Origin: a virus | Lineage: Duplodnaviria > Caudoviricetes | Virus record (IMG/VR): IMGVR_UViG_3300027917_000057 | Coordinates: 1 to 53,635 of that record | Reading direction: 5' to 3' (one strand) | DNA length: 53,635 nucleotides | In this document: positions 31,644-53,500 of the stretch, in pieces | How the letters are laid out: every line of letters starts with the position of its first letter | Numbering within the stretch: position 1 is the first letter of the stretch | The notes under the pieces: generated by a model | The model's input: the letters and a program-made list of their open reading frames with translations, nothing else | Told to the model about the DNA's origin: nothing | The model's database searches: none | Program-made: the position numbers and the translations under genes

Positions 31644-31647
31644 GTGT

Positions 31648-34031: not shown

Positions 34032-34054
34032 GTGGCTACCCTCCTTTCTGAGGC

Positions 34055-36107: not shown

Positions 36108-36510
36108 TGTAGTTACCTCCTCTAGGTATCTCGGTCGCTAGCGTTATGCCAGCACGGGCCGCTTTTGCGCGTTGGATCTCCTCGGTCTTGGCAGCGCGTG
36201 CCCCGTTGTACTTCAGCCTCTCGTCTGGGGTCATATCGCTGAAGAGCCGGAGAACGTGGATCTGCAGGAGAACCTCGACGAAGTCTTCGGCCCCATCAAT
36301 CAGGCACGGTAGGGAGATGGGGCTGGTAGCGACCCCCTGCGGGGTAGGTACGGCAACGATGGAAGGCCTGAGCTCAAAGCATTCGGTCATTCGACAGACG
36401 TCCCCGGGCTTGGCGTTGGCAGGAACCTTCCCGATGAAACGGGTACCTCCTGAGTGAACTATTGCGAGAACAGGTGCGTCAGGCTGGTTGGTGCTTGTCG
36501 GTTTGTCCAT
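36079..36510 (-). CDS. Hypothetical protein
   Basis: Start placed at ATG 36510; small beta-barrel-like pattern followed by a helix. Confidence 0.5.
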   Translation of the reverse strand: MDKPTSTNQPDAPVLAIVHSGGTRFIGKVPANAKPGDVCRMTECFELRPSIVAVPTPQGVATSPISLPCLIDGAEDFVEVLLQIHVLRLFSDMTPDERLKYNGARAAKTEEIQRAKAARAGITLATEIPRGGNYNGGFKPPTS

Positions 36511-38231
36511 GTCTGTGGGTGGTTGATGAGGATTGGCTCGTACGGTCCTCCCTCCTCCTTGGGCCAAGACCGCAGGTGGTACTGAAGCTTCTTGCTCATT
36601 CCGATGCACTGCCCGACGTTGTCTACCAGAGCAACGATTAGCGGGCTCTTCTTTCCTGGCATGGGTCGAGTCGGACGGCCCATGAGCTGCTGAAGACTGT
36701 TGCCACTTGAGAAAAGGGAGGACAGCACGATGGTGTCCAACTCCTGGCAGTCCAGGCCCTCTTTACCGTACTTTGTGATGGCGAAGTTCAGCATTTTGTT
36801 GTCGAGGAAGGAGTGGCGGACTTTGGGGGGCACTCCGTGGATTAGGAATCCTACGTCCGCGTTCTGCTGTAGGGCGGTCTCGATGTACTTCCTTTGCCTC
36901 CGCTCCATCTCATTCAGCAGCTTCTTGTGCACCTCGAACTGGCGGAAGGTCTGGCGAACCAGGTCGAGCTCTGCTTGGAGAAGTGCCAGGTCTGGGCTGC
37001 CTGGGTTCTTCAGCTTCTGACGCTCTATTTGCTTCTCGAGCTTTCCTTGTAGCACCCCCAGCTGGTGGACCTCTTTATCAGTCAGCTTCTTGGGGTTCAG
37101 GGTCTCCCCGATGTCTGCGATCGTGGGCTGGGGGATGTCAGTGTAGAGCGTGGGCATGCCCGCCCAGATGGCGTAGAGATTCACCACTTCCGCTACACTA
37201 TCGGAGAGGACAAGAACCCTCCTGCCGTACGCTCTGGCTTCTGCGCAGATGTCTACTATGGCCTGAAGTCGCGGTGCCCACTGGCCGAAGTAGGAGTACA
37301 CCTTCTTGAGGTGTACTTCCTGGTTTGAGTCCAGAACCTGCGCTGCTACGACGGGGTCAGCTGCGTTCACCGCCAACCCTGTCCAGAAGAAGGCGAAGGT
37401 AGGCCTGAGCATGGGTGTCAGGTCCTTGTAGAGGACCTTGCCGATGTGCGCGTCTGCAATCACGTGCATACCGTCATCACGGGTGGGGGTTGCAGTTAGC
37501 GAGTAGCGGTTTCCGTAGAACAGGTCTGCAGTCTTGGCGAACGTCGGTGCACTGACATGGTGGCCCTCATCCCAGAACACCTGACCGAACCATCTTCTTA
37601 CCTCCTCGGGCATTGTCTCCGACCAGTTCGCTACGGAGTGGTAGGTGGCGAGTACTAGTGGCTTCTGCCACTCCTTCTTTCCAGCCTCTAGGAACCCGAT
37701 GCCACCAGGGATGTCTAGAAGATCCTCGGCTTCCTTTGCCCATTGGTAGAGTAGGTTGGTGTTATCCAGCATCACCAGAGCTGGGGTTTGACCCCGTGCG
37801 ATTTTCTCTAGAGCAATGACCGTCTTTCCCCGTCCGCAGGCCAGCTGCAGGATGCCCGTTGGCTGCTGCATGAGAGCTGCTAGCGACCGGCTCTGTACGT
37901 CACGACCTGTGGGCAGAAGCTGGATCTGCCCTCCGAGCTCCTGTGGCAGATGATCTAGTCGTATCCTGCTTTTGAAGTCGACGTGGGTGTACCTCCTGGG
38001 ACGGCAATCCACCACGGGGAAGGGGAGTTCCGAAGGTGTCCAGAAAGCTCTAGGAAGAAGCATGTGGTGCTCCGCTTCTTTCCACAGGTAGATAAAGCGG
38101 GTGTGCCCTCCATACGACTGTATCTCGTACGTGAGCGCTCGTTTGGTTCCCTCCACATCGATGAAGGGTCGGGGTACCCAGAGATAGGTGTCCAGGTACC
38201 CCTTGTCCGGCTGCCGTACAATGACCCTCAT
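36459..38231 (-). CDS. Superfamily 2 DEAH helicase (UvsW/Rad25-like)
   Basis: LACGRGKT, WDEGHH, LTATPTRDDG, KEGLD and QLMGRPTR motifs. Confidence 0.9.
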   Translation of the reverse strand: MRVIVRQPDKGYLDTYLWVPRPFIDVEGTKRALTYEIQSYGGHTRFIYLWKEAEHHMLLPRAFWTPSELPFPVVDCRPRRYTHVDFKSRIRLDHLPQELGGQIQLLPTGRDVQSRSLAALMQQPTGILQLACGRGKTVIALEKIARGQTPALVMLDNTNLLYQWAKEAEDLLDIPGGIGFLEAGKKEWQKPLVLATYHSVANWSETMPEEVRRWFGQVFWDEGHHVSAPTFAKTADLFYGNRYSLTATPTRDDGMHVIADAHIGKVLYKDLTPMLRPTFAFFWTGLAVNAADPVVAAQVLDSNQEVHLKKVYSYFGQWAPRLQAIVDICAEARAYGRRVLVLSDSVAEVVNLYAIWAGMPTLYTDIPQPTIADIGETLNPKKLTDKEVHQLGVLQGKLEKQIERQKLKNPGSPDLALLQAELDLVRQTFRQFEVHKKLLNEMERRQRKYIETALQQNADVGFLIHGVPPKVRHSFLDNKMLNFAITKYGKEGLDCQELDTIVLSSLFSSGNSLQQLMGRPTRPMPGKKSPLIVALVDNVGQCIGMSKKLQYHLRSWPKEEGGPYEPILINHPQTWTNRQAPTSLTHLFSQ

Positions 38232-38237
38232 TCGTTC

Positions 38238-39080
38238 CTACTCCGACCACCAGGGAACGTGGTCCATCATGTTTGCTGCGCTCAGGAAGCCATACTTGAG
38301 CATGGACCTGCCGACACTACCTATGAACCGCTTGAAGTAGGGCAGGGTTGCAGGCTCGGGTACGGTCATCACTGCGAGTACTTGTGTCCCAGGCTGTACT
38401 ACGTTCTGAGGGACCAAGGCAGGGATCTGTGCTTGCTCTGGCGGTACCATCATCACCATCATGGGCTGCCCGTTGTAGTGTGTTTGGTACATCATGGGCT
38501 GGACCTGCCCTGGAGTTGCTGTTGCTACCTGAATAGGCTGAGTGTGCATCTGGGGGATGACCGGACCTGGCAAGGAGGGCGGCCTTACCTGAACGCTCCT
38601 TTGGGCTACCGGAACGTGCGGCTGAATGCTTGAGGGTTGTGCCAGCGTCAGCGTCTTCCTGGAACCGTCTGGCATTGGGACGGTTACGCTGGGGGTGTAG
38701 GGCACGGCAACGGGTTGCGGTTGTACCTGCGGGGGCACCTGCGGTGCCTGCGGTGCCTGCGGCAGCTGAAGAGGAACAGGCTGCCCCTGCTGGATCACGG
38801 GTAGGAATGACTGAGGGAGCCCTTGTATTTTCTGCCGGTTCATCTCGGCGGCACAGGGTTGGTACACACCACACTGGGGACGTTTGTGGCTACTGCCGTC
38901 CCAAAATGTCTTGTCGTTTCCTCCCACGCACTTGACGTTGTGCGCCTCCCATTTCTCTCCGAAGCAAGACGGCCCTTCCCAGCCGCAGGTAGAGCAGACC
39001 GTTCTGTTTCTGCCCTCTCGATCTGCACGATCCATTATCTGGGCCGCAATCTGCCCGCACTTCGGACACTGTTTAACCAT
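38238..39080 (-). CDS. Zn-ribbon protein with a Pro/Gln-rich region
   Basis: CPKC...CSTC N-terminus, RBS AGGAGG; first gene after the bipartite motif. Confidence 0.7.
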   Translation of the reverse strand: MVKQCPKCGQIAAQIMDRADREGRNRTVCSTCGWEGPSCFGEKWEAHNVKCVGGNDKTFWDGSSHKRPQCGVYQPCAAEMNRQKIQGLPQSFLPVIQQGQPVPLQLPQAPQAPQVPPQVQPQPVAVPYTPSVTVPMPDGSRKTLTLAQPSSIQPHVPVAQRSVQVRPPSLPGPVIPQMHTQPIQVATATPGQVQPMMYQTHYNGQPMMVMMVPPEQAQIPALVPQNVVQPGTQVLAVMTVPEPATLPYFKRFIGSVGRSMLKYGFLSAANMMDHVPWWSE

Positions 39081-39120
39081 GTGACCTCCTGGAGCTACGC
39101 TCCGGTTTCTCTCTCAGATC

Positions 39121-39152
39121 TCTTATGCCTGTGCAATTCCCTTTCTTGCGGC
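39121..39152 (-). promoter_or_regulatory. Bipartite promoter-like motif GCCGCAAGAA-N13-GGCATAAGA
   Basis: Both boxes and the spacer length are identical to the copy at 50467-50498; divergent intergenic region. Confidence 0.7.
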
Positions 39153-39209
39153 GCACAGGCTACTCTTGCAGGAAGAATCCCGAGCGGTTACGCTGCCCAC
39201 GAGGAGAAA

Positions 39210-39581
39210 ATGGAGAAGCTCAGCGGTCTAGTTTTGGACTACTTCGACGATCCTCGTGGCGAGGTGATCAAGCAGGTCTTCCCGACTTTCGAGGATGTAC
39301 CCGAAGTCATCAAAGAGGCCATGCCGATGTCGTCAGTAGACTTGTCGAAGCTGCCTGACGATGTCTTCGCTCTGGTTCTTCACGACGAGGACACCGTTCT
39401 TCGGAAGTACGCCTGCATCGACGAAGGCAATACCTGTCTTCACATAGAGTACTTCGTGAAGACCGCCCACAAGCTTCCGGTGGAGGCGCAGAAGACCGCC
39501 GCCCAGAACCTCCTCACGGCCTGTTCTTGGTACAACATCGACCCTCCCAGAGAGCTGACTCAGATTCTGGAGCAGGAGTGA
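39210..39581 (+). CDS. Head-module hypothetical protein
   Basis: Start moved to ATG 39210 (RBS GAGGAG); 123 aa. Confidence 0.65.
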   Translation: MEKLSGLVLDYFDDPRGEVIKQVFPTFEDVPEVIKEAMPMSSVDLSKLPDDVFALVLHDEDTVLRKYACIDEGNTCLHIEYFVKTAHKLPVEAQKTAAQNLLTACSWYNIDPPRELTQILEQE

Positions 39582-40699
39582 TGCCCGAAGTCACCCGGAA
39601 GCAACAGCTCTGGAAGACCTCCGGCGGTTGTATTACTGAGAAGGAGTCGGAGGTGGTCGGTACGTGGGACCAACCCCTGCAAGCGGCTCCTAGTAAGGTT
39701 CGACCGAACGAGAAGCCGAAACCCCTGTCCGCGATCCCCAAGGTAGGGTCTCTGCGGGAGACCTTTGGGTGGGAGGAGAAGATGGCGTCAGTGCAGCAAC
39801 CCAGTGCAGACGACGAGCTCGAGGCGATGTTCAAGGAAGCAGCCGGTAGTGACCGAGAGACCCAGGGCGTAGAGCCCGATACGAACATCAAGACCGAGCA
39901 CAAGGAGCAGCCCGCTTCTTTGCCGCAGAACAAGAAGGTGTTGGAGCCCCACGTCGACGTGAGCCGCAACAACCCTCCGAAGCTCGTCAAGGAGAAGACG
40001 GCGCAGCACTACGCCATGCCCAGCTTGTGCCGGTATCCTCTAGATGGGTTCCATCAGGTCAAGCAGGCCAGCGCCTACTTCGACGAGTTCTGGAAGGAGA
40101 TGGAGCCGGAGGACCGTCGAGAGTTTGCTCTTCATCTGGTCAAGCGCGCCAGCGTGTTGGGCATGCCTGTCAGCGACACCGCCGAGCACTACGGCGCACC
40201 TGGGTACGCTCCGCGTATCCACACCTTGACGGAGCTTGCGGCTAGAGAGGACTTGGTCAAAGAGGCGGCTCATCAGGACCTCTACTTGGCCCTCAGAGAG
40301 CAGCTGGGGGTTCTTCCACCAGACGTCTTCGCCCACACTCTGCACGAGATCGACAAGGCGGCGGGGATCGACGAGGCTTACGGCAAGGACTGCATGGACC
40401 CTTGGTACACGACGTTCGGTACCGAGAAGGTAGCTGCCGGGGCTGGAGCCGAGGGAAAGACCGTAGACCCCAAGGATGCTGTCATCATAGGTGCCGAGTA
40501 CATGAACATCTCCGATCTGGTGGAGTTTGCGCACGCGCGTGCTCCGATGGTTGAGATGCGGTTCGGCGAGGACTTCGCCAAGGAGCTGCGGGAAGATCCA
40601 GCCGGCATCTTCGACACGCTGCCGAGGGACCAGAAGATCGTACTGATGCGGATGGTCAACAACTCTCACAGCTCGACTCAGGGAGCCTCGACGTCGTGA
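39581..40699 (+). CDS. Head-module hypothetical protein rich in K-x-A motifs
   Basis: TGATG-coupled start at 39581; KMAS, KEAA, KTAQ, KQAS, KRAS, KVAA. Confidence 0.65.
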   Translation: MPEVTRKQQLWKTSGGCITEKESEVVGTWDQPLQAAPSKVRPNEKPKPLSAIPKVGSLRETFGWEEKMASVQQPSADDELEAMFKEAAGSDRETQGVEPDTNIKTEHKEQPASLPQNKKVLEPHVDVSRNNPPKLVKEKTAQHYAMPSLCRYPLDGFHQVKQASAYFDEFWKEMEPEDRREFALHLVKRASVLGMPVSDTAEHYGAPGYAPRIHTLTELAAREDLVKEAAHQDLYLALREQLGVLPPDVFAHTLHEIDKAAGIDEAYGKDCMDPWYTTFGTEKVAAGAGAEGKTVDPKDAVIIGAEYMNISDLVEFAHARAPMVEMRFGEDFAKELREDPAGIFDTLPRDQKIVLMRMVNNSHSSTQGASTS

Positions 40700-40700
40700 C

Positions 40701-41543
40701 ATGTCGGATGACGTCTTTCCCCATGACCCCGACACTCTGAAGGGGCAGAAGGAGCTCAACCAGCTCCTGAAGGGGACGGGGGTAATCCGTCCTCTGCACG
40801 AGGTGCTTTCAGAGTACCCCGAAGACAATGCCACCCAGCTCGAGGAGACAGCGGAGGTAGACGACGATCGTACCCGGGTGGACGTGGAGGCTGCTCCTCG
40901 GCTGCCCACTACCATCAACCTCTTTCAGCACCCGGACGCTCATCCCTTCGTTCTGGACCTGGCACTACTGAAGAAGTACGGGCCCGAATGGATGCAGTGG
41001 GAACCGGAGGTGCTGGAGCTCCGGATTCTGTCCGACTTCCGAACGAACAGCCTCAGTGACCTGAATGCAGATAAGCTGATGGCCATCGCTTCTGTGCACC
41101 TGAGGGACGAGTTCTGGAAGGAGTGGCAGGTCTTCACCCCCATTGCTCTCGCCCTAGCCGGCTACGCTCCTGACTTTCAGGTCATGCAGGGCATCACGGT
41201 CCCTCAAGCGTTGATCGCCGTGGACATTGTGAATCGCTTGAGGGCAGACGTCCCTTGGAGTTTGGAGATGAAGACGTACCTGAGCGTTGTTCATCTTCAC
41301 GACGGCATGTTCTGCCCCATCCCTCCATTGGACTTCGTGGAGGTCGACCACGAAGACTACGGTGTGGACTGTGCGGACATCATGTCTCGTTGGGACACGG
41401 TTCGCGCTAGCAAGGAGCCCCCACCTGCTACATCGGTGGAAAACGAACAGCTCCGGCGTATGCTAGCAGCCTGGACCTTGCTAGAAGAAAACCGCAAACA
41501 GCTGCAAGATCAGCTACCTCTTCTCTATCATGGCCGCGATTGA
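40701..41543 (+). CDS. Hypothetical protein (head module)
   Basis: 280-aa ORF in a tightly packed operon upstream of the portal. Confidence 0.65.
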   Translation: MSDDVFPHDPDTLKGQKELNQLLKGTGVIRPLHEVLSEYPEDNATQLEETAEVDDDRTRVDVEAAPRLPTTINLFQHPDAHPFVLDLALLKKYGPEWMQWEPEVLELRILSDFRTNSLSDLNADKLMAIASVHLRDEFWKEWQVFTPIALALAGYAPDFQVMQGITVPQALIAVDIVNRLRADVPWSLEMKTYLSVVHLHDGMFCPIPPLDFVEVDHEDYGVDCADIMSRWDTVRASKEPPPATSVENEQLRRMLAAWTLLEENRKQLQDQLPLLYHGRD

Positions 41544-42687
41544 CAAACAGGTCCTCCTCGCCTTCGAGAGGGAGCTCGAGAAGAACGCGTTTCTAGGGGC
41601 GGTTCTCTCCAAGGCGGCGCCGTTGACGTCCAAGCTATCCCCCGCCCTTCAATTCATTCGCAGGGGTGCAGGTAGCGCCGGTGCTGGAATGGGGCTGGGA
41701 ACTGCCACTGGTGCAGCTGGAGGAGCTGCCATTGGGGGCTACAAGGGTTACCGTGAGGCCAAGGAACAAGGGCAGAGCGGGGTAGCTGGGGCCCTGGGAG
41801 GGGCAGCGAAGGGTGCTGGCACCGGTGCGATGGTGGGGGCCGCCACAGGTTTAGCCGGGGGCATGGCCTTGGGGGGTACGGGGACGCGGCTTGGGCAGTC
41901 CCTTCAGAACCTAGGGCAGGCTAGCAACCCCCTTGGGTCCATAGCGCGCTTTGGGCAACGCCAGCTACACGGTGTCACGGGTCTGACTCCCGGTGGCGCT
42001 CAGCGGGGGACCGCCGAGTACGCCAAGGCCATGGCTGGGATGCGGATGGGGGCTCACCCAGCGGCGGCTGGCGTGCTGGAAGCCGAGATGGCTGTCGCCC
42101 GAGCCGGAACGAATCCCAAGCTCCTAGAAAAAGCCACGAAGGCTTTGGAGTCTGCAAAGTCCCAGCACGCCATCGCTCAGGAAGCCGAAGCCAAGGGGCT
42201 GACCAGCCTACCAGGAATGGTGCGATCCATGACCTCCAAGGAGGGGATCAAGGACGTCTGGCGCCTGGGTATGAAGCCGCAGCTAACGCAGCAGGGTATG
42301 ACGGGTAAGATGATGGCAGGGCTCCCAGTGGCCTTCGCTGCGCCAGAGCTCTTTAGGTCCCAGGAGCAGGACCCTGAAGGTCGGGGGCGCCTCGAGAGGT
42401 TTGGTAGTGGCGTAGGCAGCGGTGTGGGCTACGCCCTGTCCCCGTTCCTGCCTCTTGTTGGGCAGGAAGCAATGGGACGAGCTGTCGGAGGGGTAGGAAA
42501 AGGTCTGGGCAAGGGTGTGGACATGGCCATCGGCGCCCTCCGAGGGAAGAAGCCGCAACCTCCCATGACCGAGCTCGGCAACAATCCTTCGGCTCCTGGC
42601 GTCGATCCTTCAGGGATGAATGAAGCTGTGCCTAGAATCTACTCCAATGCAGCGCAGGGCAAGCCGCCGGAAGGCATGATGATATGA
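41530..42687 (+). CDS. Gly/Ala-rich putative internal virion (ejection-type) protein
   Basis: 385 aa; glycine-zipper-like GAAGGAAIGG segments; N-terminal AFERELEKNA leader. Confidence 0.5.
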   Translation: MAAIDKQVLLAFERELEKNAFLGAVLSKAAPLTSKLSPALQFIRRGAGSAGAGMGLGTATGAAGGAAIGGYKGYREAKEQGQSGVAGALGGAAKGAGTGAMVGAATGLAGGMALGGTGTRLGQSLQNLGQASNPLGSIARFGQRQLHGVTGLTPGGAQRGTAEYAKAMAGMRMGAHPAAAGVLEAEMAVARAGTNPKLLEKATKALESAKSQHAIAQEAEAKGLTSLPGMVRSMTSKEGIKDVWRLGMKPQLTQQGMTGKMMAGLPVAFAAPELFRSQEQDPEGRGRLERFGSGVGSGVGYALSPFLPLVGQEAMGRAVGGVGKGLGKGVDMAIGALRGKKPQPPMTELGNNPSAPGVDPSGMNEAVPRIYSNAAQGKPPEGMMI

Positions 42688-44741
42688 GCTTCACGGGTGG
42701 GAACTTCGCCTTCGGAGCAGGTGGTGCCTCCAGGTTTCATACTGGGTTTACCAGAGGGCGCATCGGGGGTGCCGCCCACGTTCAGGGTGTCAACTACCCG
42801 AGCCCCTTCTTCGACATCGCGCACACCTACCTGCCGACGACTGTCAAGCAGCTGTTCCAGTTCTGCCGTTACTACTATCTGACGAATCCGCTGATCAACG
42901 CCATCGTCCAGAAGCTGTCCGAGTACCCAGTCACGGACATCATCATCGACCACGAGGACCCAAAGGTCGTGGAGAAGTGGAAGGAGTACTTCTACGACAC
43001 GGCCAGAATCAGGCCGTTCCTGGTGGAGTGTGGCCTCGACTACAACTGCTATGGCAACGCGGCAGTAACCCTGAGCTTCCCCTTTCAGAAGTACCTCAAG
43101 TGCGACTACTGCGGATTCAACGAGCAGGCCAGAAAGATACGAAACAACTGGACATACACGAGCAACGAGTTCCGGTTGTCCTGCCCCCGTTGTGGGCACA
43201 CTGGCGCGGCTACTCCAAAGGACTGGTACTACAAGGACGCGTCTGGCATTCGACCCGTTCGCTACAACGTCGAAGACATCGAGGTTGAGTACAACCAGAT
43301 CACCGGCGGCTACACCTACTTCTTCACCATCCCGGCACCCATGCGGGCGGATATCACCCTCGGGAAGAAGGATGTCGTCGAGCAGATGCCGCAGATCTTC
43401 CTGCAGGCAATCCGGCAGCAGAAAGGCGTCATCTTCAGCAAGTCCAACTTCTTCCATCTGAAGAGGGCGACCATTGCTTGGCAGGACAGAGGGTGGGGAA
43501 TCCCATTGATCCTCCCGGTTCTCAAGGACGCGTTCTATCTGCAGGTCATGAAGAAGGCCCAAGAGGCAATTCTCGTAGAGCACATCGTTCCTCTACGCGT
43601 CTTGTTTCCGCAAGCAGCGTCTGGAACCAGTGACCCCTTCACGACCATCAACCTAACGGAGTGGAGAGACCAGGTCGCTGCCGAGATCGCTCGATGGCGT
43701 TTCGACAACAACTACATCCCCATCATGCCGTTGCCTCTGGGGAATCAGAGCATCGGTGGGGATGGCAAGGCCCTTCTACTTCAAGGAGAGATGCAGCAGC
43801 TCGGTGAGCACATCATCATGGGCATGGGCGTCCCTAGAGAGTTCCTGCAGGGTGGCCTGAGCTACGCCGGCACTAACGTGTCCATGCGAATGCTGGAGAA
43901 CGCGTTCATCAGCTACATCAGCCGTCAGCGACAGATGGCTGTATGGATCATGAAGATGGTCGCGCACTTCATGGGGTGGCCTGAGGTGGGTATCCGCTTC
44001 AAGCCCTTCAAGATGGCGGACGACCTTCAGCGAAAGAGCTACCTCTTCCAGCTCAACCAAGCGCAGAAGATCAGCGACACGACCCTTCTGGCGGATGCGG
44101 ACTTGGACATCAAGGAAGAGAACGAGATCATGGTGCGGGAGAGCGCGGAGCGCATCCACGCGACCAAGAAGCAGCAGATCGCGATGGCCGAGATTCAGGG
44201 AGAGTCTCAGGTCATCATGATGAAGTACCAACAGAAGGCGCAGCAGGCCATGATGGCCGCGCAGGCTGGACCGCAGGCGCCAGGAGAGCCGGGGGGTCCA
44301 GAGGGTCAGATGGGCGTAGGACAGGCCCAAGCACAGGCCCAAGAGGGGGAGCAGGCAGCAGCCCAGGCAGGAGGGCAAGGAGGGCAGCCTCCGGCGCCAC
44401 CTGCTGGCCCGCCTCCAGCGTCTCTGCCTCCCGAGCCCGGGGCTTCTCAGACCGTACCTCAAGAGGCGCAGTCACTACTAGGAAACGACCAGCAGTCTGG
44501 CGTGGACATCGTTCAGATGGCTGAGATGTATGCGACCCAGATCTCCCAGATGCAACCGCCGGAGCAGCAGGCGGCTCTGGCAGCGCTCGAGGCGCAGAGT
44601 CCAGAGCTGGCGCAACTGGTTCAGCAGTTCATGGGGCTTATGCAGGGAGGGCAGGCAGGGCAGGGGTTGGTCGATACCGGAGTAGATCAGCGCCCCCTCC
44701 CTGAGCAGCTGCCCGCCCGTAGGCAGTCGCAGTTGGTGTAG
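42684..44741 (+). CDS. Putative portal protein with a zinc-ribbon insertion and a Q/P-rich tail
   Basis: YYYLTNPLINAIVQKLSEYP, DYNCYGNA, FHLKR...RGWGIPLI and IIMGMGVPREFL follow the portal-family layout. Confidence 0.7.
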   Translation: MSFTGGNFAFGAGGASRFHTGFTRGRIGGAAHVQGVNYPSPFFDIAHTYLPTTVKQLFQFCRYYYLTNPLINAIVQKLSEYPVTDIIIDHEDPKVVEKWKEYFYDTARIRPFLVECGLDYNCYGNAAVTLSFPFQKYLKCDYCGFNEQARKIRNNWTYTSNEFRLSCPRCGHTGAATPKDWYYKDASGIRPVRYNVEDIEVEYNQITGGYTYFFTIPAPMRADITLGKKDVVEQMPQIFLQAIRQQKGVIFSKSNFFHLKRATIAWQDRGWGIPLILPVLKDAFYLQVMKKAQEAILVEHIVPLRVLFPQAASGTSDPFTTINLTEWRDQVAAEIARWRFDNNYIPIMPLPLGNQSIGGDGKALLLQGEMQQLGEHIIMGMGVPREFLQGGLSYAGTNVSMRMLENAFISYISRQRQMAVWIMKMVAHFMGWPEVGIRFKPFKMADDLQRKSYLFQLNQAQKISDTTLLADADLDIKEENEIMVRESAERIHATKKQQIAMAEIQGESQVIMMKYQQKAQQAMMAAQAGPQAPGEPGGPEGQMGVGQAQAQAQEGEQAAAQAGGQGGQPPAPPAGPPPASLPPEPGASQTVPQEAQSLLGNDQQSGVDIVQMAEMYATQISQMQPPEQQAALAALEAQSPELAQLVQQFMGLMQGGQAGQGLVDTGVDQRPLPEQLPARRQSQLV

Positions 44742-44743
44742 TC

Positions 44744-46210
44744 ATGCTCTGGGAGGCGTTTGCTGACGAGCTCATCAAGATCTCGGCAGTCAAGACCGAG
44801 TTGAAGCCCCATCAGCAACGGGTTGTTGATAGGGTCCAAAGAGAGGATCAACCAGGGCTAGTAGTTGCGCACGGGCTAGGCTCTGGAAAGACCCTCACGG
44901 CTATCGCTGCGCAGGATGTTCTTGGGATGCCGGCAACGGTAGTAGTTCCTGCGGCTCTACAGGCGAATTACCTAAAGGAGCTCGATAAGCATCTAGAAGG
45001 AACCTCTCCTGAGGCAGCGTTGACCACCCTACAGCGCGTTTCCAAGGCGGGCCGTTTGGGGGCGTCTAACCCTCTTCTGGTTGTAGACGAGGCTCACCGA
45101 GCTCGAGAGGTCAACACCAAGACATACCAGGCGCTCAAGAACAGCATTCCTGGTACAGAAAAGCGTCTTCTGCTGACAGCCAGCCCCTTTTACAATCGAC
45201 CGAGTGACATTGCACCCCTCGTTAACCTAGCCGCCGGAGAGAAGGTACTTCCAGCCGACCCCACAGAGTTTAAGAGCAGGTACATCAGAGAACGTAAGGT
45301 CCAGCCTGGGTTCATCGCGCGTGTTCGCGGAGTAAAACCTGGGGTTGTGGAAGAGGTCGACCCCTTTCGCGCTCCCGAGCTTCGTACGGTCTTCCGCAAG
45401 TGGGTGGACTACCATCCAAGCTCTACAGAAGGATTTCCGTCGGTACAGCGCAAGACTGTAGAAGTCCCGATGACGCAATCTCAGCTGAGGGCCTATGACG
45501 CCATGATGGGCACCGCTCCGTACTGGGTGGCGGCCAAGGTCAAAGCGGGGCTTCCTCCGGACAAGAAGGAGGCGCAGCAGCTCAATGCTTTCGTAAATGC
45601 GGTGAGGCAGATATCGAATACGACTCGAGCCTTTGCTCCCAATAAGGCGCCAGAGGAGCCAAAGATCGATGCGGCGTACAAGCGTTTGCAGAGTACCCTA
45701 ACTTCGACGCCGACAGCGCGTGCAGTCGTGTACTCCAACTATCTGAAGAGCGGCATCGAGCCCTACAAGGAGCGGTTGGATAGGGCAGGCATCCCCTACG
45801 GCGAGTTTACCGGAGAGATGAAGAGGCGAGAGCGGGAGCAGCTTGTACGCGACTACAATGATGGAAAAAAGAAGGTTCTTCTGCTGAGCTCCGCGGGCGG
45901 GGAGGGGCTTGATCTAAAGGGAACCAGGCTGATTCAGATTCTAGAGCCGCACTGGAATGCAGAGAAGCTTAAACAGGTGGAGGGCCGCGGCATCCGCTTT
46001 GGGAGCCATGCTCACCTCCCAGAAGAGCAGAGGAATGTAGTGGTTGAGAACTACCTTGCGACGCGTCCTGAGAGGAAGGGCATGGCAAGGGTATTGATGG
46101 GGCGCAGTACGGGCGGTAGTGTGGACCAGTACCTCACTGGGATGAGCGACCGCAAAGAGGGCTTGGTCCAACAGATGAAGTTGCTGCTGCCTACTGAAAC
46201 GGCAGGCTAA
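44744..46210 (+). CDS. SNF2-like SF2 helicase/ATPase
   Basis: HGLGSGKT, VVDEAH, LLLTASP, AGGEGLDLKG, EPHWN, QVEGRGIR. Confidence 0.9.
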   Translation: MLWEAFADELIKISAVKTELKPHQQRVVDRVQREDQPGLVVAHGLGSGKTLTAIAAQDVLGMPATVVVPAALQANYLKELDKHLEGTSPEAALTTLQRVSKAGRLGASNPLLVVDEAHRAREVNTKTYQALKNSIPGTEKRLLLTASPFYNRPSDIAPLVNLAAGEKVLPADPTEFKSRYIRERKVQPGFIARVRGVKPGVVEEVDPFRAPELRTVFRKWVDYHPSSTEGFPSVQRKTVEVPMTQSQLRAYDAMMGTAPYWVAAKVKAGLPPDKKEAQQLNAFVNAVRQISNTTRAFAPNKAPEEPKIDAAYKRLQSTLTSTPTARAVVYSNYLKSGIEPYKERLDRAGIPYGEFTGEMKRREREQLVRDYNDGKKKVLLLSSAGGEGLDLKGTRLIQILEPHWNAEKLKQVEGRGIRFGSHAHLPEEQRNVVVENYLATRPERKGMARVLMGRSTGGSVDQYLTGMSDRKEGLVQQMKLLLPTETAG

Positions 46211-46212
46211 GA

Positions 46213-46234
46213 AACAGGGCCCGTAGGCCCTGTT
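46213..46234. terminator. Bidirectional terminator-like hairpin between convergent operons
   Basis: AACAGGGCC-CGTA-GGCCCTGTT. Confidence 0.65.
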
Positions 46235-46248
46235 CCTGACCTTGCTTC

Positions 46249-47559
46249 CTACTCTGGAAGTATTGGCGGCTTGAGAGCCTGGTTCTTTTCGCAGACGACA
46301 ATGTGCCCCCAGTTGGCGGGCTTTCTAGCCCAAGGGGTTCGGACTACACACCAGATTACGTCCATGCCTCTCGGAGGAGCTGCTGGTGCAACTCCGTCGC
46401 CGTCAGTGATGTAGATCACGAGATTGGGCCGCGGTCGTAGCTTTACTAGCTTCTCGAAGGCGATTCTGAAGTCGGTACCGCCTCTACCATGGAACCCCAG
46501 ATTGGGTATCTGCGCTGCGCGCACCTGCTGGCAGTAGTGGACGTCTACGTCGACGTGTAGCAACCAAATCTTGTCGGAAGTGATCTTCTTGGCGATGTGG
46601 AAGCTTTCGTTGTGGGCATCTTGTAGCTGATCGGGCCCCATGGACCCCGAGGTGTCCACCACCACTGCTGCCACGATTGGGCGGTCCACAAGTCCGCTCA
46701 GCAGCGCGCCAGTAAACATGCCTGTCATGGAGGGGCGCTGCATCGAATAGTCACGAGCACCTGCTCGGATGGCTCCGGAGGAACGTCTGGCAACTTGCCT
46801 AAATTTTTGGCGCCAGTTGACGTCTGGGGGTTTGATCTTGGTTTTGATGAGCTCGTGGTACCGGCCCGGAACGGACCCCCTACCGTGTGCTTCTATGTAC
46901 TGCTCGATGTCCTCCAGCGTCTTTCTCCTGATGGCTTCTACCTCGGCCGGGCTCTTGCCGTACTGAGCGTCTAGCTCGGCTTCGAGCTCCGCGTTCGAGG
47001 CGTGGCCCCCGCCGCCACCACAGGTTCCTTGCGCGACGCCGATCTGTGGCTGACCTTCACCTTTACCCTTCTTCTCCGCCGCCTTGGCCCTCAATTGGGA
47101 AATGGTGATCTTCTGCTCCGCACACATCTTCTGGAGCTTGTCGTAGTACCACTCCAGGTTCTTCCCGCCTGGGAGCCCCACGTCTTCGGGGTAGATGCCG
47201 CAATCAGGGAGCTCCTCGCCTTCCTCGCGCAGGTCGTAGTTAATGGCCCTATCGCCGGCGTCGTTGGCCAGCTCTAGATCTGGTAGGGCCTCCAGCCGGT
47301 CTATCCCTCGGAGCGGGTGCTCGAGCTCATGGCGTACCAGCCCTGCCATCTTTGCGTCGGTATCGACATAGGGGCTGCGTAGAACGAAGTCTGCCCCTAC
47401 GTACAAGACCAGATGCTTGGTGATCCCCATAGTGACGCCAGGTGTATTGACGACCACAGGAGTCAGGTTGAGCAGAGTTTCCGCTACGTACTCGGTCTTC
47501 TCCAGAATAGCCGCTCTAGCGAGCGCCAGACGGTGAAGGATTGCGGCCTCGTCGTCCAT
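46249..47559 (-). CDS. DUF2201-type metallopeptidase + VWA domain protein
   Basis: HELEH motif; MIDAS DTSGS, GRGGTDF, YITDGDG. Confidence 0.88.
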   Translation of the reverse strand: MDDEAAILHRLALARAAILEKTEYVAETLLNLTPVVVNTPGVTMGITKHLVLYVGADFVLRSPYVDTDAKMAGLVRHELEHPLRGIDRLEALPDLELANDAGDRAINYDLREEGEELPDCGIYPEDVGLPGGKNLEWYYDKLQKMCAEQKITISQLRAKAAEKKGKGEGQPQIGVAQGTCGGGGGHASNAELEAELDAQYGKSPAEVEAIRRKTLEDIEQYIEAHGRGSVPGRYHELIKTKIKPPDVNWRQKFRQVARRSSGAIRAGARDYSMQRPSMTGMFTGALLSGLVDRPIVAAVVVDTSGSMGPDQLQDAHNESFHIAKKITSDKIWLLHVDVDVHYCQQVRAAQIPNLGFHGRGGTDFRIAFEKLVKLRPRPNLVIYITDGDGVAPAAPPRGMDVIWCVVRTPWARKPANWGHIVVCEKNQALKPPILPE

Positions 47560-48821
47560 TACGACCTCTTTGCGCGTAGGATGTACTCGAGCATACCGTT
47601 GTCATTGAGCTCCGCGCAGACCTCTTCAGCAGCATCCGCTACTTGCTCCGAGGGGCAGTCCGAGTCCAGTCTCGCGTGAATCAGAACACGAGCGGGCTGG
47701 ACCACTATGTCGGAGTAGCCTTTGTCCATGCACTTTCTAAGCAGGTCCCAGCATTGTTTCGCTCGTTTGAACTTGTCTTGTGCGTCCTCTTGAGAGACCA
47801 CGAAGTTGACGCATCCTCCCAGAACAGCTCGGACGATGTCCATGCGCTTCGGGATGGACCAACGCCCATCCAGGGCATCCTCTGAAGATGGGAGATTCGC
47901 CTTCTTTCGGTAGGCAAACCATTCTACCGCCAAGCCCTCGCCTACTAGGGAGGAGGCCACATCGATGTGGACCGTCTCGTCCATCTCTAGGCAGGTGGCG
48001 GCGGTGGTGCCGAATACCAGAAGGGACCAAGTTCGAGGAGTCGGCCATGGCTTTGACGCTCTGGGGTCGTCGGGGCCCGGCGGGTTGTAGAACTTGCTGA
48101 CCTCGTGGGTCTCTTCCTTACCGCCCTCGGAGAGCTCCTTGACGATGTGCAGCCCACCGTTGTCCTTCAAGAAGCCGGCAGAGATGTGGAGCTCCTTCTC
48201 GAAGTTCTCCGCCCAGGTGCTCTTGACTTGCTTCTCTGCGTCCTTGAATGAAGGAAGCCCTAACTCCAGCTTCCCACCGGGGGCAAGGCTGCTCATGTAG
48301 TTCTCCCACTGAGGGATAGTGGGGTTGATGTAGTTCTGGTGCCCTGCTCGATTCATCATAGGGATGGTTAGCTCCTGGCCATTCGCTGCGATGTCGGGAG
48401 GGTTCATCGCCATGATGATGCGTACAGACGGAGGCAGCACGTACTCTCCTACCTGACGTTCGTTTATGAACGAGAGAAGAGCTGCCTGTACAGCACCCGG
48501 GGCCGTGGAGATCTCATCTAGGAACAGGCAGGCTTTGCGCACATCAATGGCACTTACCACCTGAGGAAGGATGCACTCGATGCTGAACCCGTTGGGTCCT
48601 ATGACGGGCACACCGGAGAAGTGTTCAGGTTGTTTGGTGCTGCTGTAGATGGGGAAGCAGTACAGCTCTAGTGCTTTGCAGATCTGTCCAAGGCGCGCAC
48701 TTTTAGCTACGCCTGAACCTCCAATGATGTTGAACGGCACCCCCCAATTGGTGAGCACCTCGTTGGGGTTACCAAGAGGCGCCATCAAACAGGTAAGTGC
48801 GAACTTCGTGAATTTATCCAT
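47559..48821 (-). CDS. MoxR-like AAA+ ATPase
   Basis: GGSGVAKS, LFLDEIS, AMNPP, NR and PTPRTW; coupled to the VWA gene. Confidence 0.85.
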   Translation of the reverse strand: MDKFTKFALTCLMAPLGNPNEVLTNWGVPFNIIGGSGVAKSARLGQICKALELYCFPIYSSTKQPEHFSGVPVIGPNGFSIECILPQVVSAIDVRKACLFLDEISTAPGAVQAALLSFINERQVGEYVLPPSVRIIMAMNPPDIAANGQELTIPMMNRAGHQNYINPTIPQWENYMSSLAPGGKLELGLPSFKDAEKQVKSTWAENFEKELHISAGFLKDNGGLHIVKELSEGGKEETHEVSKFYNPPGPDDPRASKPWPTPRTWSLLVFGTTAATCLEMDETVHIDVASSLVGEGLAVEWFAYRKKANLPSSEDALDGRWSIPKRMDIVRAVLGGCVNFVVSQEDAQDKFKRAKQCWDLLRKCMDKGYSDIVVQPARVLIHARLDSDCPSEQVADAAEEVCAELNDNGMLEYILRAKRS

Positions 48822-49104
48822 GCCGCTCCTTCAAGTACTCACTAACTTCTTCCGCCCACTCTCGGGGTAGAACTGTGACAACGCAGTCGTCTTTGATGAC
48901 TAAGAAGCCCTCCTCCGAGTCGAGCTCGAAGGGTACATAGAGCCCGCCCGGTGCGCGCACGTATGTGTTCGCTGCGCGGGCGGACTCGATGCTAGAAGCG
49001 AGCCACTCCAGTAGGGCTCGCTTTGAAAGAGCAGCAGCTGTAGGCCACCGTTCCTTCATTCTTTTGAAGGCGTGAGCGGAGACGTAATGTTTTCCGATGC
49101 CCAT
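48814..49104 (-). CDS. Small protein with an SxHAxxRxxER motif (DUF4258/RelE-like pattern)
   Basis: VSAHAFKRMKERW...LVIKDDCVVTVL; start placed at ATG 49104. Confidence 0.5.
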   Translation of the reverse strand: MGIGKHYVSAHAFKRMKERWPTAAALSKRALLEWLASSIESARAANTYVRAPGGLYVPFELDSEEGFLVIKDDCVVTVLPREWAEEVSEYLKERHG

Positions 49105-49670
49105 TGCCACGCCCTTTCGTGCTTGCAGACGTGCTCGCACTCACCCGTGCGCCAGCAACGTTCCTCCACGCCGAGCTCGCACTCTCCGTTGTTCCGTACT
49201 GGCTCGTCCCAGTACTCCCTGCATTCGACGTTCAGGGTGTTCAGGCAGCAGGTACAGAGGTAGTAGGGCTCGCCTCGTGGCAGGAACAGTACAGAGCGCT
49301 CCCCACTGTCTGGCTGCCTCTCATCTAGGTGTAGCGCTCCAAACTCGATGAGGCCAACTAGCTCGCCGCTTATAACGCTGCTCATGCAGACGTCACACTG
49401 CCGCAAGTGCGGATGCGCCTTGTCTGGTACCGCTCCGTAGATGGTGTTTGCTAGGTCTTCCTGATCCTCCTCCCAACAGTCGGTACACAAGAAGTAGGGG
49501 AGGTAGACGTATTCTCCCTTACAGTCCAACTGGTCGTACAGGAATACGCCTTCCTCGTTCTCATAGATTCGGTGAACGCGGAGGCAGAAGATTTCTTGTC
49601 CTAGTTTGATCTCCTCCTCGCATGCACCGCAGGTATGCCCACTAGAGCTGGGCTTCAAAGTTGTTCCCAT
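49056..49670 (-). CDS. Cys-rich multi-zinc-finger hypothetical protein
   Basis: CGAC, CTDC, CDVC, CTCC plus C-terminal Cys residues; start placed at ATG 49670. Confidence 0.6.
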   Translation of the reverse strand: MGTTLKPSSSGHTCGACEEEIKLGQEIFCLRVHRIYENEEGVFLYDQLDCKGEYVYLPYFLCTDCWEEDQEDLANTIYGAVPDKAHPHLRQCDVCMSSVISGELVGLIEFGALHLDERQPDSGERSVLFLPRGEPYYLCTCCLNTLNVECREYWDEPVRNNGECELGVEERCWRTGECEHVCKHERAWQWASENITSPLTPSKE

Positions 49671-50248
49671 CTGATCCGTTCCTCTTCGACGCGCTTCCAT
49701 CGATACTCAAGATTATCGAGACTGGGGTCTGGTCCGAGCCCGGTAACAGGGTCTGCATCCCAAAGAAGGATGTCGTGGCGCTCAACGTCGTTTTTGTCTG
49801 CGCGGTGAATGCGGCGAGAGATCGTTGTCTCTGGTAGTACACCCCACTGATGTTGTGCCCGCAGATTCAACTCTCTTGCAAAGAGGTCATCTGCTAGGTC
49901 AATGTCGTCTACGAACAGACCGATCCAACCGTCGGCCTCATCGTTGACGTAAGAGTACTTCTCTCCCGTCCAGGGGCAGTACTGACCCCCCTTTGCCAGG
50001 CCCAGTAAGACCTCTAGGTCACGCTGGTTGCAAAAGGAGATGAAGCCCTTCTGATCGGTGAGGTGAACACGCAGCCCCCCGATGGCGCGGCCAGGAATGG
50101 GAGCGTAGACACCATCGATGACCCAGACCCGCTCGGACGTCACGGGGTCCTCGAAAGAACAGCCCATGAGTCCGAACGCGTCTGAAAGGAACCGCGTGCC
50201 GGGGATAGGGGCTAGGAGGTCGTTCTCCCTAAACGGGTGAACGATCAC
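49655..50248 (-). CDS. Hypothetical protein
   Basis: Start placed at GTG 50248, downstream of AGGAGG. Confidence 0.6.
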   Translation of the reverse strand: MIVHPFRENDLLAPIPGTRFLSDAFGLMGCSFEDPVTSERVWVIDGVYAPIPGRAIGGLRVHLTDQKGFISFCNQRDLEVLLGLAKGGQYCPWTGEKYSYVNDEADGWIGLFVDDIDLADDLFARELNLRAQHQWGVLPETTISRRIHRADKNDVERHDILLWDADPVTGLGPDPSLDNLEYRWKRVEEERIRWEQL

Positions 50249-50329
50249 GTTCCCTCCTACGCCCCTCTTCGATGCACCATGCCAGCGCACCTTCGAGGAG
50301 GCCTAGGATTAGACCCCACAGGATTATCC

Positions 50330-50446
50330 CTAGCACTCTTCCTCCTTTTCTTCTTGCTCCTCCTCCTTCTGTTCTTCTTCGTTGTCATCGTCGTCTCGAG
50401 GAGTCATGAACAACTCCTCGACATCTTCCTTGATGCCAGGACCCAT
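50330..50446 (-). CDS. 38-aa highly acidic peptide (not in the ORF track)
   Basis: AAGGAGG-N6-ATG; MGPGIKEDVEELFMTPRDDDDNEEEQKEEEQEEKEEEC*. Confidence 0.6.
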   Translation of the reverse strand: MGPGIKEDVEELFMTPRDDDDNEEEQKEEEQEEKEEEC

Positions 50447-50466
50447 GGGGGGCCTCCTTCCATAGT

Positions 50467-50498
50467 TCTTATGCCGTCTCCACCGGTGTTCTTGCGGC
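50467..50498 (-). promoter_or_regulatory. Bipartite promoter-like motif GCCGCAAGAA-N13-GGCATAAGA
   Basis: Same boxes and spacing as 39121-39152; divergent from the RNAP gene. Confidence 0.7.
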
Positions 50499-50536
50499 AG
50501 TGAAGTCGCGTAGAGTACGCTAACCGCAGGGACTAC

Positions 50537-53500
50537 ATGGCGTATCTAGACCCCAAAGAAGCAACCGCTGACCTCAAGGCTGGCGTCCTCGAAGGAATCA
50601 AGAGCCACTTCCCGTTGAAGGGGAGGAACACGACTATTCACCTAGAGGGGATCCACGCCGACGAGCACAAGGCTGACCCAGAGGACGTATCAGGGCAGCA
50701 CGAGGCAAAGGTAAATGGTCGTACGTGGGCAGTGCCCATCATGGCGACGCTCGTCATGAAGGACAATGAGACGGGTAGGGTTCTAGAGAAGAAGACGATG
50801 AAGGTCGGTGACCTTCCAACGATGACGAAGCGGTTCACCTACATGGTGGATGGTAACGAGCTACAGGTAGATAACCAGTGGCAGCTCAAGCCAGGTGTCT
50901 ACACGAGGCGCCGGCAATCTGGGGAGCTCGAAGCGCAGTTCAACGTACCCAATAGAAGGTCATTCGACCTGACCTTCAACCCCGAGAAGAAACTCTTTCG
51001 CATGTCACGGGGAGACTCTGATGCCATCCCTGTGTATCCGCTTATGAAGGAGCTGGGGATAGATGACGACACACTTGAGAAGCATTGGGGGAAGGAGATT
51101 CTGGCAGCGAACAAAGCAGATCGCGGCGTCGCCACAGGGCTGGAGAAGTTCTTCAAGGTAGACAAGAAGAGAGCTCCGAAGGACCTACAGGAGGCCCGTA
51201 GCTACTTCCACGAAGTGATGGCGGACTCGAAGCTCCGTCCAGAGTCTACGGAGGTCACGCTGGGTAAGGGCTTCAGCAACATCAACGGTGAGGTGTTTAC
51301 CCGCGCCACCAATAAAATGCTGGCGGTACAGAACGAGGGTGCCCCCGAAGATGAGCGCGACAGCCTGGTCTTCAAGAACTTGCGAACCACAGGCGACTAC
51401 GCCAAGGACAAGCTAACCTCATGGAACGTTCAGAAGTCTGTGGGGTACAAGGTACGGCGGCAGATCAACAAGCCTGGCGCCAGTATCCGCGAAGTCATCC
51501 CTACTGGTCTGTTCAACGACCAGGTGCGATCTACCTTTACCGACAACGCGTTGGCGCGTACTGCGGATCAGGTCAACCCCTTGGAGATGATGTCGTCTAG
51601 TTTTCAGACGACCATCATGGGCCCAGGCGGCATCCAAAGTGAGCAGGCCATCAAGGACGAGGCCAAGCTCATCAGCCCCAGCCATCTAGGGTATCTGGAC
51701 CCGATCAACACACCCGAGGGAGGTAAGACGGGTGTGACGCTGCGCCTTCCGCTGGGTGTGCGGAAAGAAGGGGAAAGCCCCACAGTTCCTGCGTTCAATA
51801 TCCGTACGGGGAAGATAGAAAGACTCCCTCCCAAGACTTTCCATGACTCCACGATCGTGCTCCCAGACCAGGTACGTTGGCACAAGGGCCGTCCGGTTCC
51901 TGTGAGCAGCGAGGTCAATGTCTCGGGCACGGGTAATCAGATCGAGAAGCAGCCGTTCAAGAAGGCGGACTACGTGATGGTTAACTCCTCTCAGATGTTT
52001 GGGGTTACCAGTAACATGATTCCCTTCCTTGGGAACAACTCGGGCAACCGGGCTAGCTACGCTACTAGTCAGATCGAGCAGGCCATCAGCCTCAAGCACA
52101 GGGATGCCCCACTGGTACAGGTCGGCACGGGTCGTCACGACGAGACCTTCGAGGACTTCATCGGAAAGAACTCTGCCCAGCGCGCACCTGTGACCGGGAC
52201 GGTCGTCGGGGTAACGAAGAGTGCCGTCCACATCAAGGACAGGACTGGTAAGACCCACAAGGTTGGGCTCTACAACGACTTCCCACTGAACGACCAGAAG
52301 GCCGTTCTTGATTCTATGCCGGTGGTGAAGGTAGGAGACAAGGTCAGTGCCGGAGCCGTAGTCGCAGACAACAACTTCACCAAGGAGGGGAAGCTGGCGC
52401 TTGGCGCCAACCTGCGCGTCGCCTACCTTCCCTTCAAGGGGTACAACTTCGAGGACGGCGTGGTCATCAGCGAAAGCGCTGCCAAAAAGATGACCAGCAT
52501 CCACCTACATAAGCCCGAGATCTCAGTAGGAGATGCGGTATCAGATGTGAAGCGCTACCGGATTCATCATCCTGAAGCCTTCACTACGAAGCAGCTAGAG
52601 AAGTTGACCGACAACGGCGTGGTCAAAATTGGGCAGAGAGTGCTGCCAGGAGATCCGCTGGTACTCGCTACCAAGCCCTACGAGCTCAGGGACCGTAACA
52701 GCATCGCTCAAGTTCGCAAGAGCCTGACTAGTCAGCACACGGACGCTAGCCTGGTCTGGAAAAGCGATTACCCCGGTACTGTTGTGGGCGTCCACATGGA
52801 CAAGTCGGGTAAGACTCGAGTCCATGTGAAGACAGAAGAGCCTATGCAGCTGGGCGACAAGATTGCCGGTCGTCACGGAAACAAGGGCATCATCACTGCG
52901 GTACTTCCGGATCATGAGATGCCGCACACAGCGGACGGCAAGCACATTGAGATGGCGCTTAACCCTGCAGGCATCCCTGGGCGCATGAATATGGGTCAGG
53001 TGCTCGAGACCGCAGCCAGCAAGATTGCAGAGAAGACCGGTAAGCCTTTCGTAGTTCAGAACTTCGAGTACGGTGTCGATCAGCTAGACCGAATCAAGAA
53101 GGAGCTGAAGAAGCATGGGCTGAGTGACCAGGAGGAACTCATCGATCCTGTGAGCGGGCAGAAGCTGGGTAAGGCTCTGGTGGGCCCACAGCACATCCTC
53201 AAGCTGAACTTCCAGATCGACAAGAAGGTCAGCGCTCGAGCAGGAACTCCGCTCTTAGGCAGCGAGCCCGAGAGCTACGACATGAATCTGATTCCTTCGG
53301 GTGGAGGAAAGACCGGCGCGCAGTCCATGGGAAACATGGGGATGTACGCCATGCTGGCACATGGTGCCAAGGCAAACATCCGGGAGATGCAGACCTGGAA
53401 GAGTGAGGGAGAAGACCCCCGTGGTCGGTGGAACTCACAGCACAATCAGGTGTGGCGAGCTATCCAGACGGGTGACTACCTTCCCGCCCCCAAGAAGACG

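Follow-up and report, generated by a model that had tools for sequence, protein, structure and literature searches.

The window examined here is a contig of 53,635 bp, taken whole (IMG/VR record IMGVR_UViG_3300027917_000057), from a tailed phage of the Caudoviricetes. It has no terminal repeat and is rated 29% complete, with the full phage genome estimated at ~185 kb. No DNA-level match to its positions 38001-46000 was found among deposited phages. The window carries minus-strand operons of non-structural genes, including those for replication and recombination and, on the plus strand, the beginning of a gene for a bacterial-type RNA polymerase. The subject of this report is a two-box motif, GCCGCAAGAA-N13-GGCATAAGA (box 1 and box 2), which is found in the intergenic gaps before these operons and is a candidate promoter of the phage's own transcription system. 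The coordinates of the features discussed are collected in Table 1.

Table 1. Predicted promoters, operons and genes around the two-box motif (aa, amino acids; ORF, open reading frame)
Feature	Position	Strand	Description
Predicted promoter, copy 1	39121-39152	-	Exact match; -35-like GCAAGA 39149-39144; -10-like octamer 39129-39122
Predicted promoter, copy 2	50467-50498	-	Exact match; -35-like GCAAGA 50495-50490; -10-like octamer GGCATAAG 50475-50468
Copy 3, probable weaker promoter	34049-34083	-	Exact box 2; octamer 34063-34056
Predicted housekeeping-type promoter of the polymerase gene	50492-50521	+	TTGCGG-N18-TACGCT; ends 15 nt before ATG; -35 complements part of copy 2 box 1
Predicted housekeeping-type promoter of the plus operon 39210-46210	39166-39194	+	TTGCAG-N17-TACGCT; ends 15 nt before ATG
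Operon behind copy 1	34171-39080	-	280-aa zinc-ribbon-like protein, ResIII helicase, UDG-family protein, small unknown proteins (ORFs, Pfam)
Operon behind copy 2	46249-50446	-	Includes MoxR-like AAA_5 ATPase and DUF2201 VWA/metallopeptidase protein (Pfam)
First ORF behind copy 2	50330-50446	-	38 aa, very acidic (sequence)
Operon behind copy 3	22755-34031	-	DnaB-like helicase, DnaG-type primase, 474-aa unknown protein, family A DNA polymerase, RecA-like protein, weak PD-(D/E)XK match, RusA (Pfam)
Bacterial-type RNA polymerase gene, 5' part	50537-53635	+	1033 codons; last gene, cut by the contig end

The complete motif has exactly two matches in the window, copies 1 and 2, both on the minus strand. 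Boxes and spacing are identical in the two, but the spacers differ (AGGGAATTGCACA vs CACCGGTGGAGAC). The copies are not one duplicated segment, because their flanking sequences differ as well. Of 100 dinucleotide-preserving shuffles, none contained a single match. Box 2 in its exact form, GGCATAAGA, occurs three times in the window (34063-34055, 39129-39121 and 50475-50467), again always on the minus strand, and the first of these belongs to the site designated copy 3. Taken singly, the boxes are at chance level: with up to one mismatch, box 2 was observed 11 times against 8.15 expected (a count reached by 24 of 100 shuffles) and box 1 six times against 3.88 (reached by 20 of 100). Within the window, it is only the combination of the boxes that is significant.

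A sequence-only reading of this DNA had described the identical boxes and spacing with different spacers on the minus strand, the third exact box 2, the location of both full copies in divergent intergenic gaps just upstream of the first ribosome-binding site (RBS) of an operon, and the lack of a match to the sigma-70 consensus. All four descriptions hold. The shuffles and an exact-match scan bear out the first two, and the positions of gaps and ORFs the third. As for the fourth, the last base of the -10-like element is G, box 1 contains no TTG, and a consensus scan is empty at the sites.

Copy 2 occupies a gap of 90 nucleotides (nt) that separates the start of a minus-strand ORF (50446) from that of the polymerase gene (50537). 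Copy 1 sits in a 129-nt gap between genes that start at 39080 (minus) and 39210 (plus). Their predicted transcription starts are G 50461, after T 50462, and G 39115, as placed from a conserved step of T followed by a purine that is described below. Copy 3 is found in a gap of ~139 nt, 11 nt upstream of the GGAGGG RBS of a DnaB-like helicase gene; its GAAA is 1 nt closer to the octamer than in copies 1 and 2, and its predicted start is A 34049. All three sites are 11-41 nt upstream of an RBS or ATG on the same strand. With a scoring matrix trained on relatives only, copy 2 scores 29.9 and copy 1 scores 23.5, while the maxima of ten simulated windows range from 7.0 to 16.5. What makes copy 3 a probable promoter is its position and its conservation.

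Two further GG(C/T)ATAAG octamers are present on the minus strand, at 24194-24187 in the RusA gene (matrix score 23.3) and at 26054-26047 in a 172-aa ORF. Since both lie within coding sequence that is conserved, octamers included, in a 105-kb relative (G002), they were treated as coding coincidences and excluded from the count of promoters. They could be internal promoters or coincidences fixed by the protein sequence.

The geometry of the motif can be read from a complete relative of 191 kb (G001), in which the octamer GGTATAAG occurs 33 times against ~5.8 expected, mostly 4-60 nt upstream of an RBS and ATG. Its last base is constrained: G is found 33 times, and A, C and T are each found 0 times in this place. 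Changes to the first or second base give zero to one copies. In a logo of 31 G001 sites, with the first octamer base numbered 0 and the octamer spanning 0-7, the upstream box has G at -20 (22/31), A or C at -19, A at -18 (31/31) and A at -17 (30/31). Next to the octamer, G is frequent at -1 (20/31), and 5-6 nt past it comes a conserved T at +13 (22/31) followed by an invariant purine at +14 (31/31). Copies 1 and 2 of the window fit this register base for base, with G-C-A-A at -20 to -17 and T-G at +13/+14.

From the T-purine step we infer the transcription start. If the purine is taken as +1, the octamer (G-N-N-ATAAG) lies at -14 to -7 and the upstream box (GMAA) at -34 to -31. On this predicted numbering, the geometry is that of the sigma-70 family, with A at -11, but with G in place of T at -7. 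Two boxes at fixed spacing are found in the window, in G002, at the 31 G001 sites and in further relatives, and the motif points in the same direction as the nearby downstream gene. The signature of housekeeping sigma-70/sigma-A promoters (TTGACA-N17-TATAAT) is absent: the octamer ends in G 33 times and never in T, and box 1 is without TTG. A built-in sigma-70 scan of 34000-53635 returned a single site where 5.2 were expected, and the gaps had none. Several G001 sites (for example 1980, 3876, 182275 and 183602) also have in common a stretch of ~12 nt (...ttctctagcc...) just upstream of the -35 box, possibly the tail of a terminator or an upstream element.

The motif is conserved at orthologous places. 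In G002, which is rated 56% complete and in which the gene after copy 1 is 60% identical, GCAAGAA-N13-GGCATAAG is found in exact form at both places orthologous to copies 1 and 2 (the equivalent of copy 1 at 68113), and the octamer of copy 3 is kept at 63094. More widely, the exact octamer is present on the strand divergent from the polymerase gene, ~35-135 nt from the polymerase ATG, at 24 of 76 loci. Most other loci have a variant octamer in the same place, such as GGGATAAG, GAGATAAG, GTTATAAG or GGGATAAC, accompanied by GCAAG(A/G) 14 nt upstream and by N5-TG downstream. These loci comprise 57 distinct upstream regions. As the best site per region was picked, controls were scored alongside: at a threshold score of at least 9.5, a site is found on the divergent strand in 48/57 regions, on the opposite strand in 0/57, and among 1140 random windows drawn from these loci in 12.

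Cultured relatives are distant. A protein search of deposited phages returned Salmonella phage Arash, whose polymerase beta subunit is 34% identical over 100% of the query, and three Vibrio phages (34.5%). The Arash genome contains 31 copies of the octamer against ten of a reversed control, and 30 of the 31 are on the minus strand, which is the strand of early or middle genes. In a 50-kb stretch of Arash, GGTATAAG is among the three most over-represented 8-mers, with ten copies on the gene strand and none on the other. The Arash octamers are followed by N5, by T-G/A, and then by an RBS with ATG. The sole plus-strand copy (L153 11588-11600) has a predicted start that coincides with the ATG of gp9, which immediately precedes the sigma gene gp10; this suggests a leaderless, self-driven sigma transcript. 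Strand and upstream-region enrichment are what motif scans of this and related genomes found (48/57 vs 0/57; 33 copies in G001 and 31 in Arash), in keeping with the expectation of the sequence-only reading. Moreover, the octamer is common to a Salmonella phage and to metagenomic phages of other base composition, which favours a reader that is carried by the phages themselves.

The lineage encodes an RNA polymerase that could use such promoters. The truncated gene at the end of the window matches Pfam Rpb2_6 (1.1e-63) and RpoB chains in the PDB (2e-78). Its orthologues are fusions of beta and beta', of 2059 aa in G001 (Rpb2 and Rpb1 domains; L001 10001-16180) and 2175 aa in G002 (78019-84543). 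An RpoA domain was absent from all three records searched (G000, G001 and G002, one of them complete), with positive controls. In an alignment-based scan, the polymerase gene was found on at least 76 IMG/VR viral contigs, many of them 170-200 kb, at 36-73% identity. Directly after the G001 gene comes one whose product has a T4 gp5 trimerisation domain. This puts the polymerase gene first in a virion module and agrees with the presence of polymerase in Arash virions. In Arash, which has one gene for beta (1525 aa) and another for beta' (606 aa), virions contain beta Gp206 (the most abundant protein by mass spectrometry), beta' Gp216, sigma Gp10 and a helicase, Gp217, whose gene adjoins that of beta', according to the main text of the Arash paper (PMC10585845).

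Homologues of the Arash sigma factor Gp10 are encoded by all three complete relatives tested, with E values of 1e-18 to 3e-22. Proteins of this family can be aligned with the G001 protein across regions 2-4 (28-34% identity), and the families that they match best are FliA/WhiG and SigB/F/G, with scores far under the respective cut-offs. As judged by homology, the complete relatives and Arash have in common a divergent, group-3-like sigma of the sigma-70 family. Other sigma factors are patchy or were not found. A homologue of the second Arash sigma, Gp196, was not found in any of the five records searched, a search without a positive control. G001 also encodes a 192-aa FliA-like sigma, which was rejected as a universal reader: a scan of viral contigs returned this protein alone, and region-4 matches exceed the cut-off in 7/30 large relatives. 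A weak region-4 match in G002 (92117-92689) was likewise rejected as a sigma; it is unrelated to the small sigma of G001 and has one weak NCBIfam match far below the cut-off. The Gp10 family is thus the best candidate for the reader of the motif, because it is present in every complete relative tested.

The plus-strand genes that face the motif carry a different predicted signal. Ahead of the polymerase gene and of the plus operon, sequences of the form TTGnnn-N17/18-TAnnnT are found. They satisfy looser criteria only (TTG plus TAnnnT, with a control of their own), and the stricter sigma-70 scan did not list them. Of the 57 distinct relatives, 25 have TTGnnn-N17-19-TAnnnT ahead of the polymerase ATG, as opposed to 15 of 1140 random windows, and in an alignment of the polymerase-divergent gap in ten relatives this signal, read on the plus strand, stands out as a further conserved block near the polymerase ATG. 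Each gap would thus hold two back-to-back predicted promoters of different class, one housekeeping-like on the plus strand and one of phage type on the minus strand. At copy 2 the two overlap: the extra GCC of box 1 (50498-50496) overlaps the -35 of the opposite promoter. Box 1 extends past the core found in the family because of this overlap.

The genes behind the three sites belong to non-structural functions. After copy 3, the sequence-only reading had listed genes for a helicase, a primase, a single-stranded DNA-binding protein and a polymerase. Pfam matches uphold the DnaB_C helicase, the DnaG-type primase and the family A polymerase, which carries an exonuclease. The single-stranded DNA-binding protein finds no such support, as the 474-aa product in its place has no Pfam or PHROG match. 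Nine window proteins were compared with PHROG families, and none matched. The DnaB-like gene probably starts at ATC 34031, 6 nt past the GGAGGG. Its frame is open from 34031, and the ORF listing contains no in-frame ATG, GTG or TTG between the ATG at 33917 and the preceding stop codon; the peptide I-S/A-S-W-E-H-Q-L-L-S-R-I-I is kept in G002. A search for a terminator upstream of copy 3 found a local hairpin, but the 91-nt fold is no stabler than shuffles (z -0.23).

In the operon behind copy 2, the MoxR-like AAA_5 ATPase and the DUF2201 protein are paired at the operon end (46249-48821, minus strand), and a small acidic ORF occupies the same position as the first ORF of this operon in L001 (~9806-9680, minus strand). 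The plus-strand stretch 39527-44741 encodes four proteins of 280-685 aa without Pfam or PHROG match, which are conserved in G002, and then a SNF2-type helicase.

Taken together, these results make it probable that the motif is a promoter read by a sigma factor of the phage's own, most plausibly on the phage polymerase. This agrees in substance with the sequence-only reading, which had proposed a promoter of the phage RNA polymerase or of a phage-encoded specificity factor driving the replication genes: promoter anatomy, conservation in 48/57 upstream regions, 31-33 copies per genome in two relatives, G at -7, and a polymerase and a sigma gene in the lineage all support it. Of these two readers, a sigma-type factor is the likelier to contact the motif directly, because the phage polymerase is a multisubunit enzyme of the bacterial beta-beta' type. 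The promoter in the window would consist of GCAAGA (approximately -34 to -29), a 14-nt spacer and GGCATAAG (-14 to -7), with transcription starting at the purine of the T-G step 6 nt further on. The putative reader is a divergent group-3-like sigma of the Arash Gp10 family, whose gene would lie outside this 29% fragment. It would act most likely on the alpha-less, fused beta-beta' polymerase of the phage, and less likely on the host core. The motif would drive the minus-strand non-structural operons, both those for replication and recombination and the one that diverges from the polymerase gene, presumably early or in the middle of infection. The plus-strand polymerase gene and the 39210-46210 operon would use the housekeeping-type promoters.

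Several observations weigh against this reading. Copy 3 scores 11.3, inside the range of the simulated windows, and the window thus has two strong sites and one weak one. The conservation of the copy 2 -35 may be owed in part to the overlapping divergent -35. Exact octamers are not enriched in total across the 76 loci (50 copies vs 55 of the reversed control), nor in G003 (8 vs 7) or Vibrio phage D69 (14 vs 15). Bases 2 and 3 of the octamer vary between lineages, and this lack of enrichment in some relatives may reflect drift of these variable bases. By eye, the Arash sites lack a conserved -35. Searches of the window and G002, fragments that are 29% and 56% complete, with PF04542, PF04545, PF08281 and the Gp10 family identified no sigma gene, and region-4 matches above the cut-off are limited to 7 of 30 large relatives.

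Alternative explanations differ mainly in the protein that is taken to read the motif. A phage sigma might recognise it and recruit the host core, leaving the phage beta-beta' enzyme to other signals. The redirection of host polymerase by phage sigmas is well known, and the motif has plain sigma-70-family geometry. Some relatives, furthermore, have additional sigma genes, such as that for the 192-aa protein of G001, and region-4 matches at E<=0.01 occur in 20 of 30 large relatives. Yet no sigma other than the Gp10 family is shared by Arash and those complete relatives that were tested. Initiation by a bacterial-type beta-beta' enzyme requires some factor, and no other candidate for this role was found. 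According to the main text of the Arash paper, Gp10 is packaged together with beta and beta' (PMC10585845), which suggests joint action. Recruitment of the host core is consequently a possibility to be taken seriously, but an unlikely one.

It is less likely still, and rather improbable, that the motif is a host promoter type read by a housekeeping or an alternative (for example sigma-28-like) host sigma without any phage factor. The bipartite -35/-10 arrangement would suit such a promoter, and so would two stretches shared with a sigma-28 promoter, ATAA (-11 to -8) and AAG (-32 to -30). Against this, the last octamer base is invariantly G (33 vs 0 T) and the GCCG part of the sigma-28 element is absent. 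The same octamer is found in a Salmonella phage and in phages from unrelated metagenomes, at 45-67% G+C, which host factors could hardly explain. In addition, the adjacent plus-strand genes carry the different, housekeeping-like signal. An operator or other protein-binding site, or a site of replication or packaging, would account for there being only two to three copies in the window, for the strong ones lying in divergent control regions, and for the overlap of box 1 with the opposite -35 at copy 2. However, the boxes are unlike each other and are not reverse complements when the sequence is read directly, and no dyad-symmetric half-sites or inverted repeat are formed. The motif is always oriented with the next gene, at a fixed distance to the pyrimidine-purine step and the RBS, and 31-33 copies stand before separate genes in G001 and Arash, so that a function other than promotion is very improbable. 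A chance repeat, for which the window-level frequency of each single box might speak, is refuted by the shuffles (0/100), by conservation at orthologous places and by the controls, and hardly merits further consideration.

The preferred reading, that of a phage sigma acting on the phage polymerase, can be extended to a bolder proposal, which is put forward tentatively and with somewhat less than even confidence. The phages might carry a complete, portable transcription system of bacterial type, in which an alpha-less single-chain core and its own group-3-like sigma are both packaged in the virion and injected, and transcribe from promoters of the GG(C/T)ATAAG type with no need of the host enzyme. 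Among viral multisubunit polymerases it would be the first to depend on a sigma, its sigma-promoter pair being conserved from a Salmonella phage to phages of marine-sediment bacteria, and the motif would be its recognition site in the window. What gives the motif its wider importance is that one widespread lineage unites a near-bacterial beta-beta' enzyme, a sigma-family factor and a -35/-10 promoter with an altered last -10 base. The motif predicts exact transcription starts, splits two gene classes by strand, and could yield a sigma-promoter pair that works independently of the host.

Comparison with known systems places the motif among several types of phage transcription. Sigma factors of phages of the T4, SPO1 and phiEco32 type redirect the host polymerase and define a promoter class unlike that of the host. 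To our knowledge, such phages encode no core polymerase, and their consensus sequences differ from the motif. The promoters of T7-like single-subunit polymerases are similar in being a phage-specific class placed before middle or late genes. They form a continuous block of ~20 nt that spans the start, whereas here there are two short boxes with a non-conserved spacer and a multisubunit polymerase; both the spacers and the sequence past box 2 differ between the copies. A search for the single-subunit polymerase family (PF00940) was empty in 5/5 records, with equally empty controls.

The group-3 sigma factors, represented by sigma-28 (FliA), are similar in promoter structure. The sigma-28 promoter has a -35 element TCTAAAG at -36 to -30 and a -10 element GCCGATAA at -15 to -8 (PMC12784957). 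The motif is bipartite as well and, given the predicted +1, has AAG (-32 to -30) and ATAA (-11 to -8) in the same register. Within the -10 element only ATAA is in register, GCCG being replaced by G-G-C here and by G-N-N in relatives. Against TAAA(G), the motif has AAG in register but reads G and C at the first and second bases, and this register depends on the predicted start. The motif further differs in its extra invariant G at -7 and in G for the T of TAAA, and the sigma of this lineage is phage-encoded and far below the family cut-offs. The shared register fits a group-3-like factor, but because GCCG is missing the motif is not a sigma-28 promoter.

The closest parallel in the use of a phage-borne enzyme is found in jumbo phages of the phiKZ-like and AR9-like types, which, according to PMC7824862, PMC7598289 and PMC5449584, encode two-barrel multisubunit polymerases that transcribe host-independently from phage-specific promoters; virions contain one set of these enzymes. 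Those polymerases consist of four to five very divergent polypeptides, and no sigma factor has been found in these phages (PMC7824862). Unlike these types, the lineage described here has a near-bacterial fused beta-beta' (2e-78 to RpoB), a sigma-70-family factor and -35/-10 geometry. Salmonella phage Arash (OQ632216.1) has a homologous polymerase beta, the Gp10 sigma, and an octamer that is the same as that of G001 and one base off that of the window; it differs in that its beta and beta' are unfused and no -35 is evident by eye.

No description of this promoter was found in the literature searched, supplements and subscription journals lying outside its scope. The word 'promoter' is absent from the main text of the Arash paper (PMC10585845), its supplements likewise being outside the scope, and a literature search with the octamer returned unrelated primer matches only. 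That phage-specific promoters are read by phage enzymes is a known idea, to which a conserved, predicted sigma-type promoter together with a bacterial-type polymerase adds a variant.

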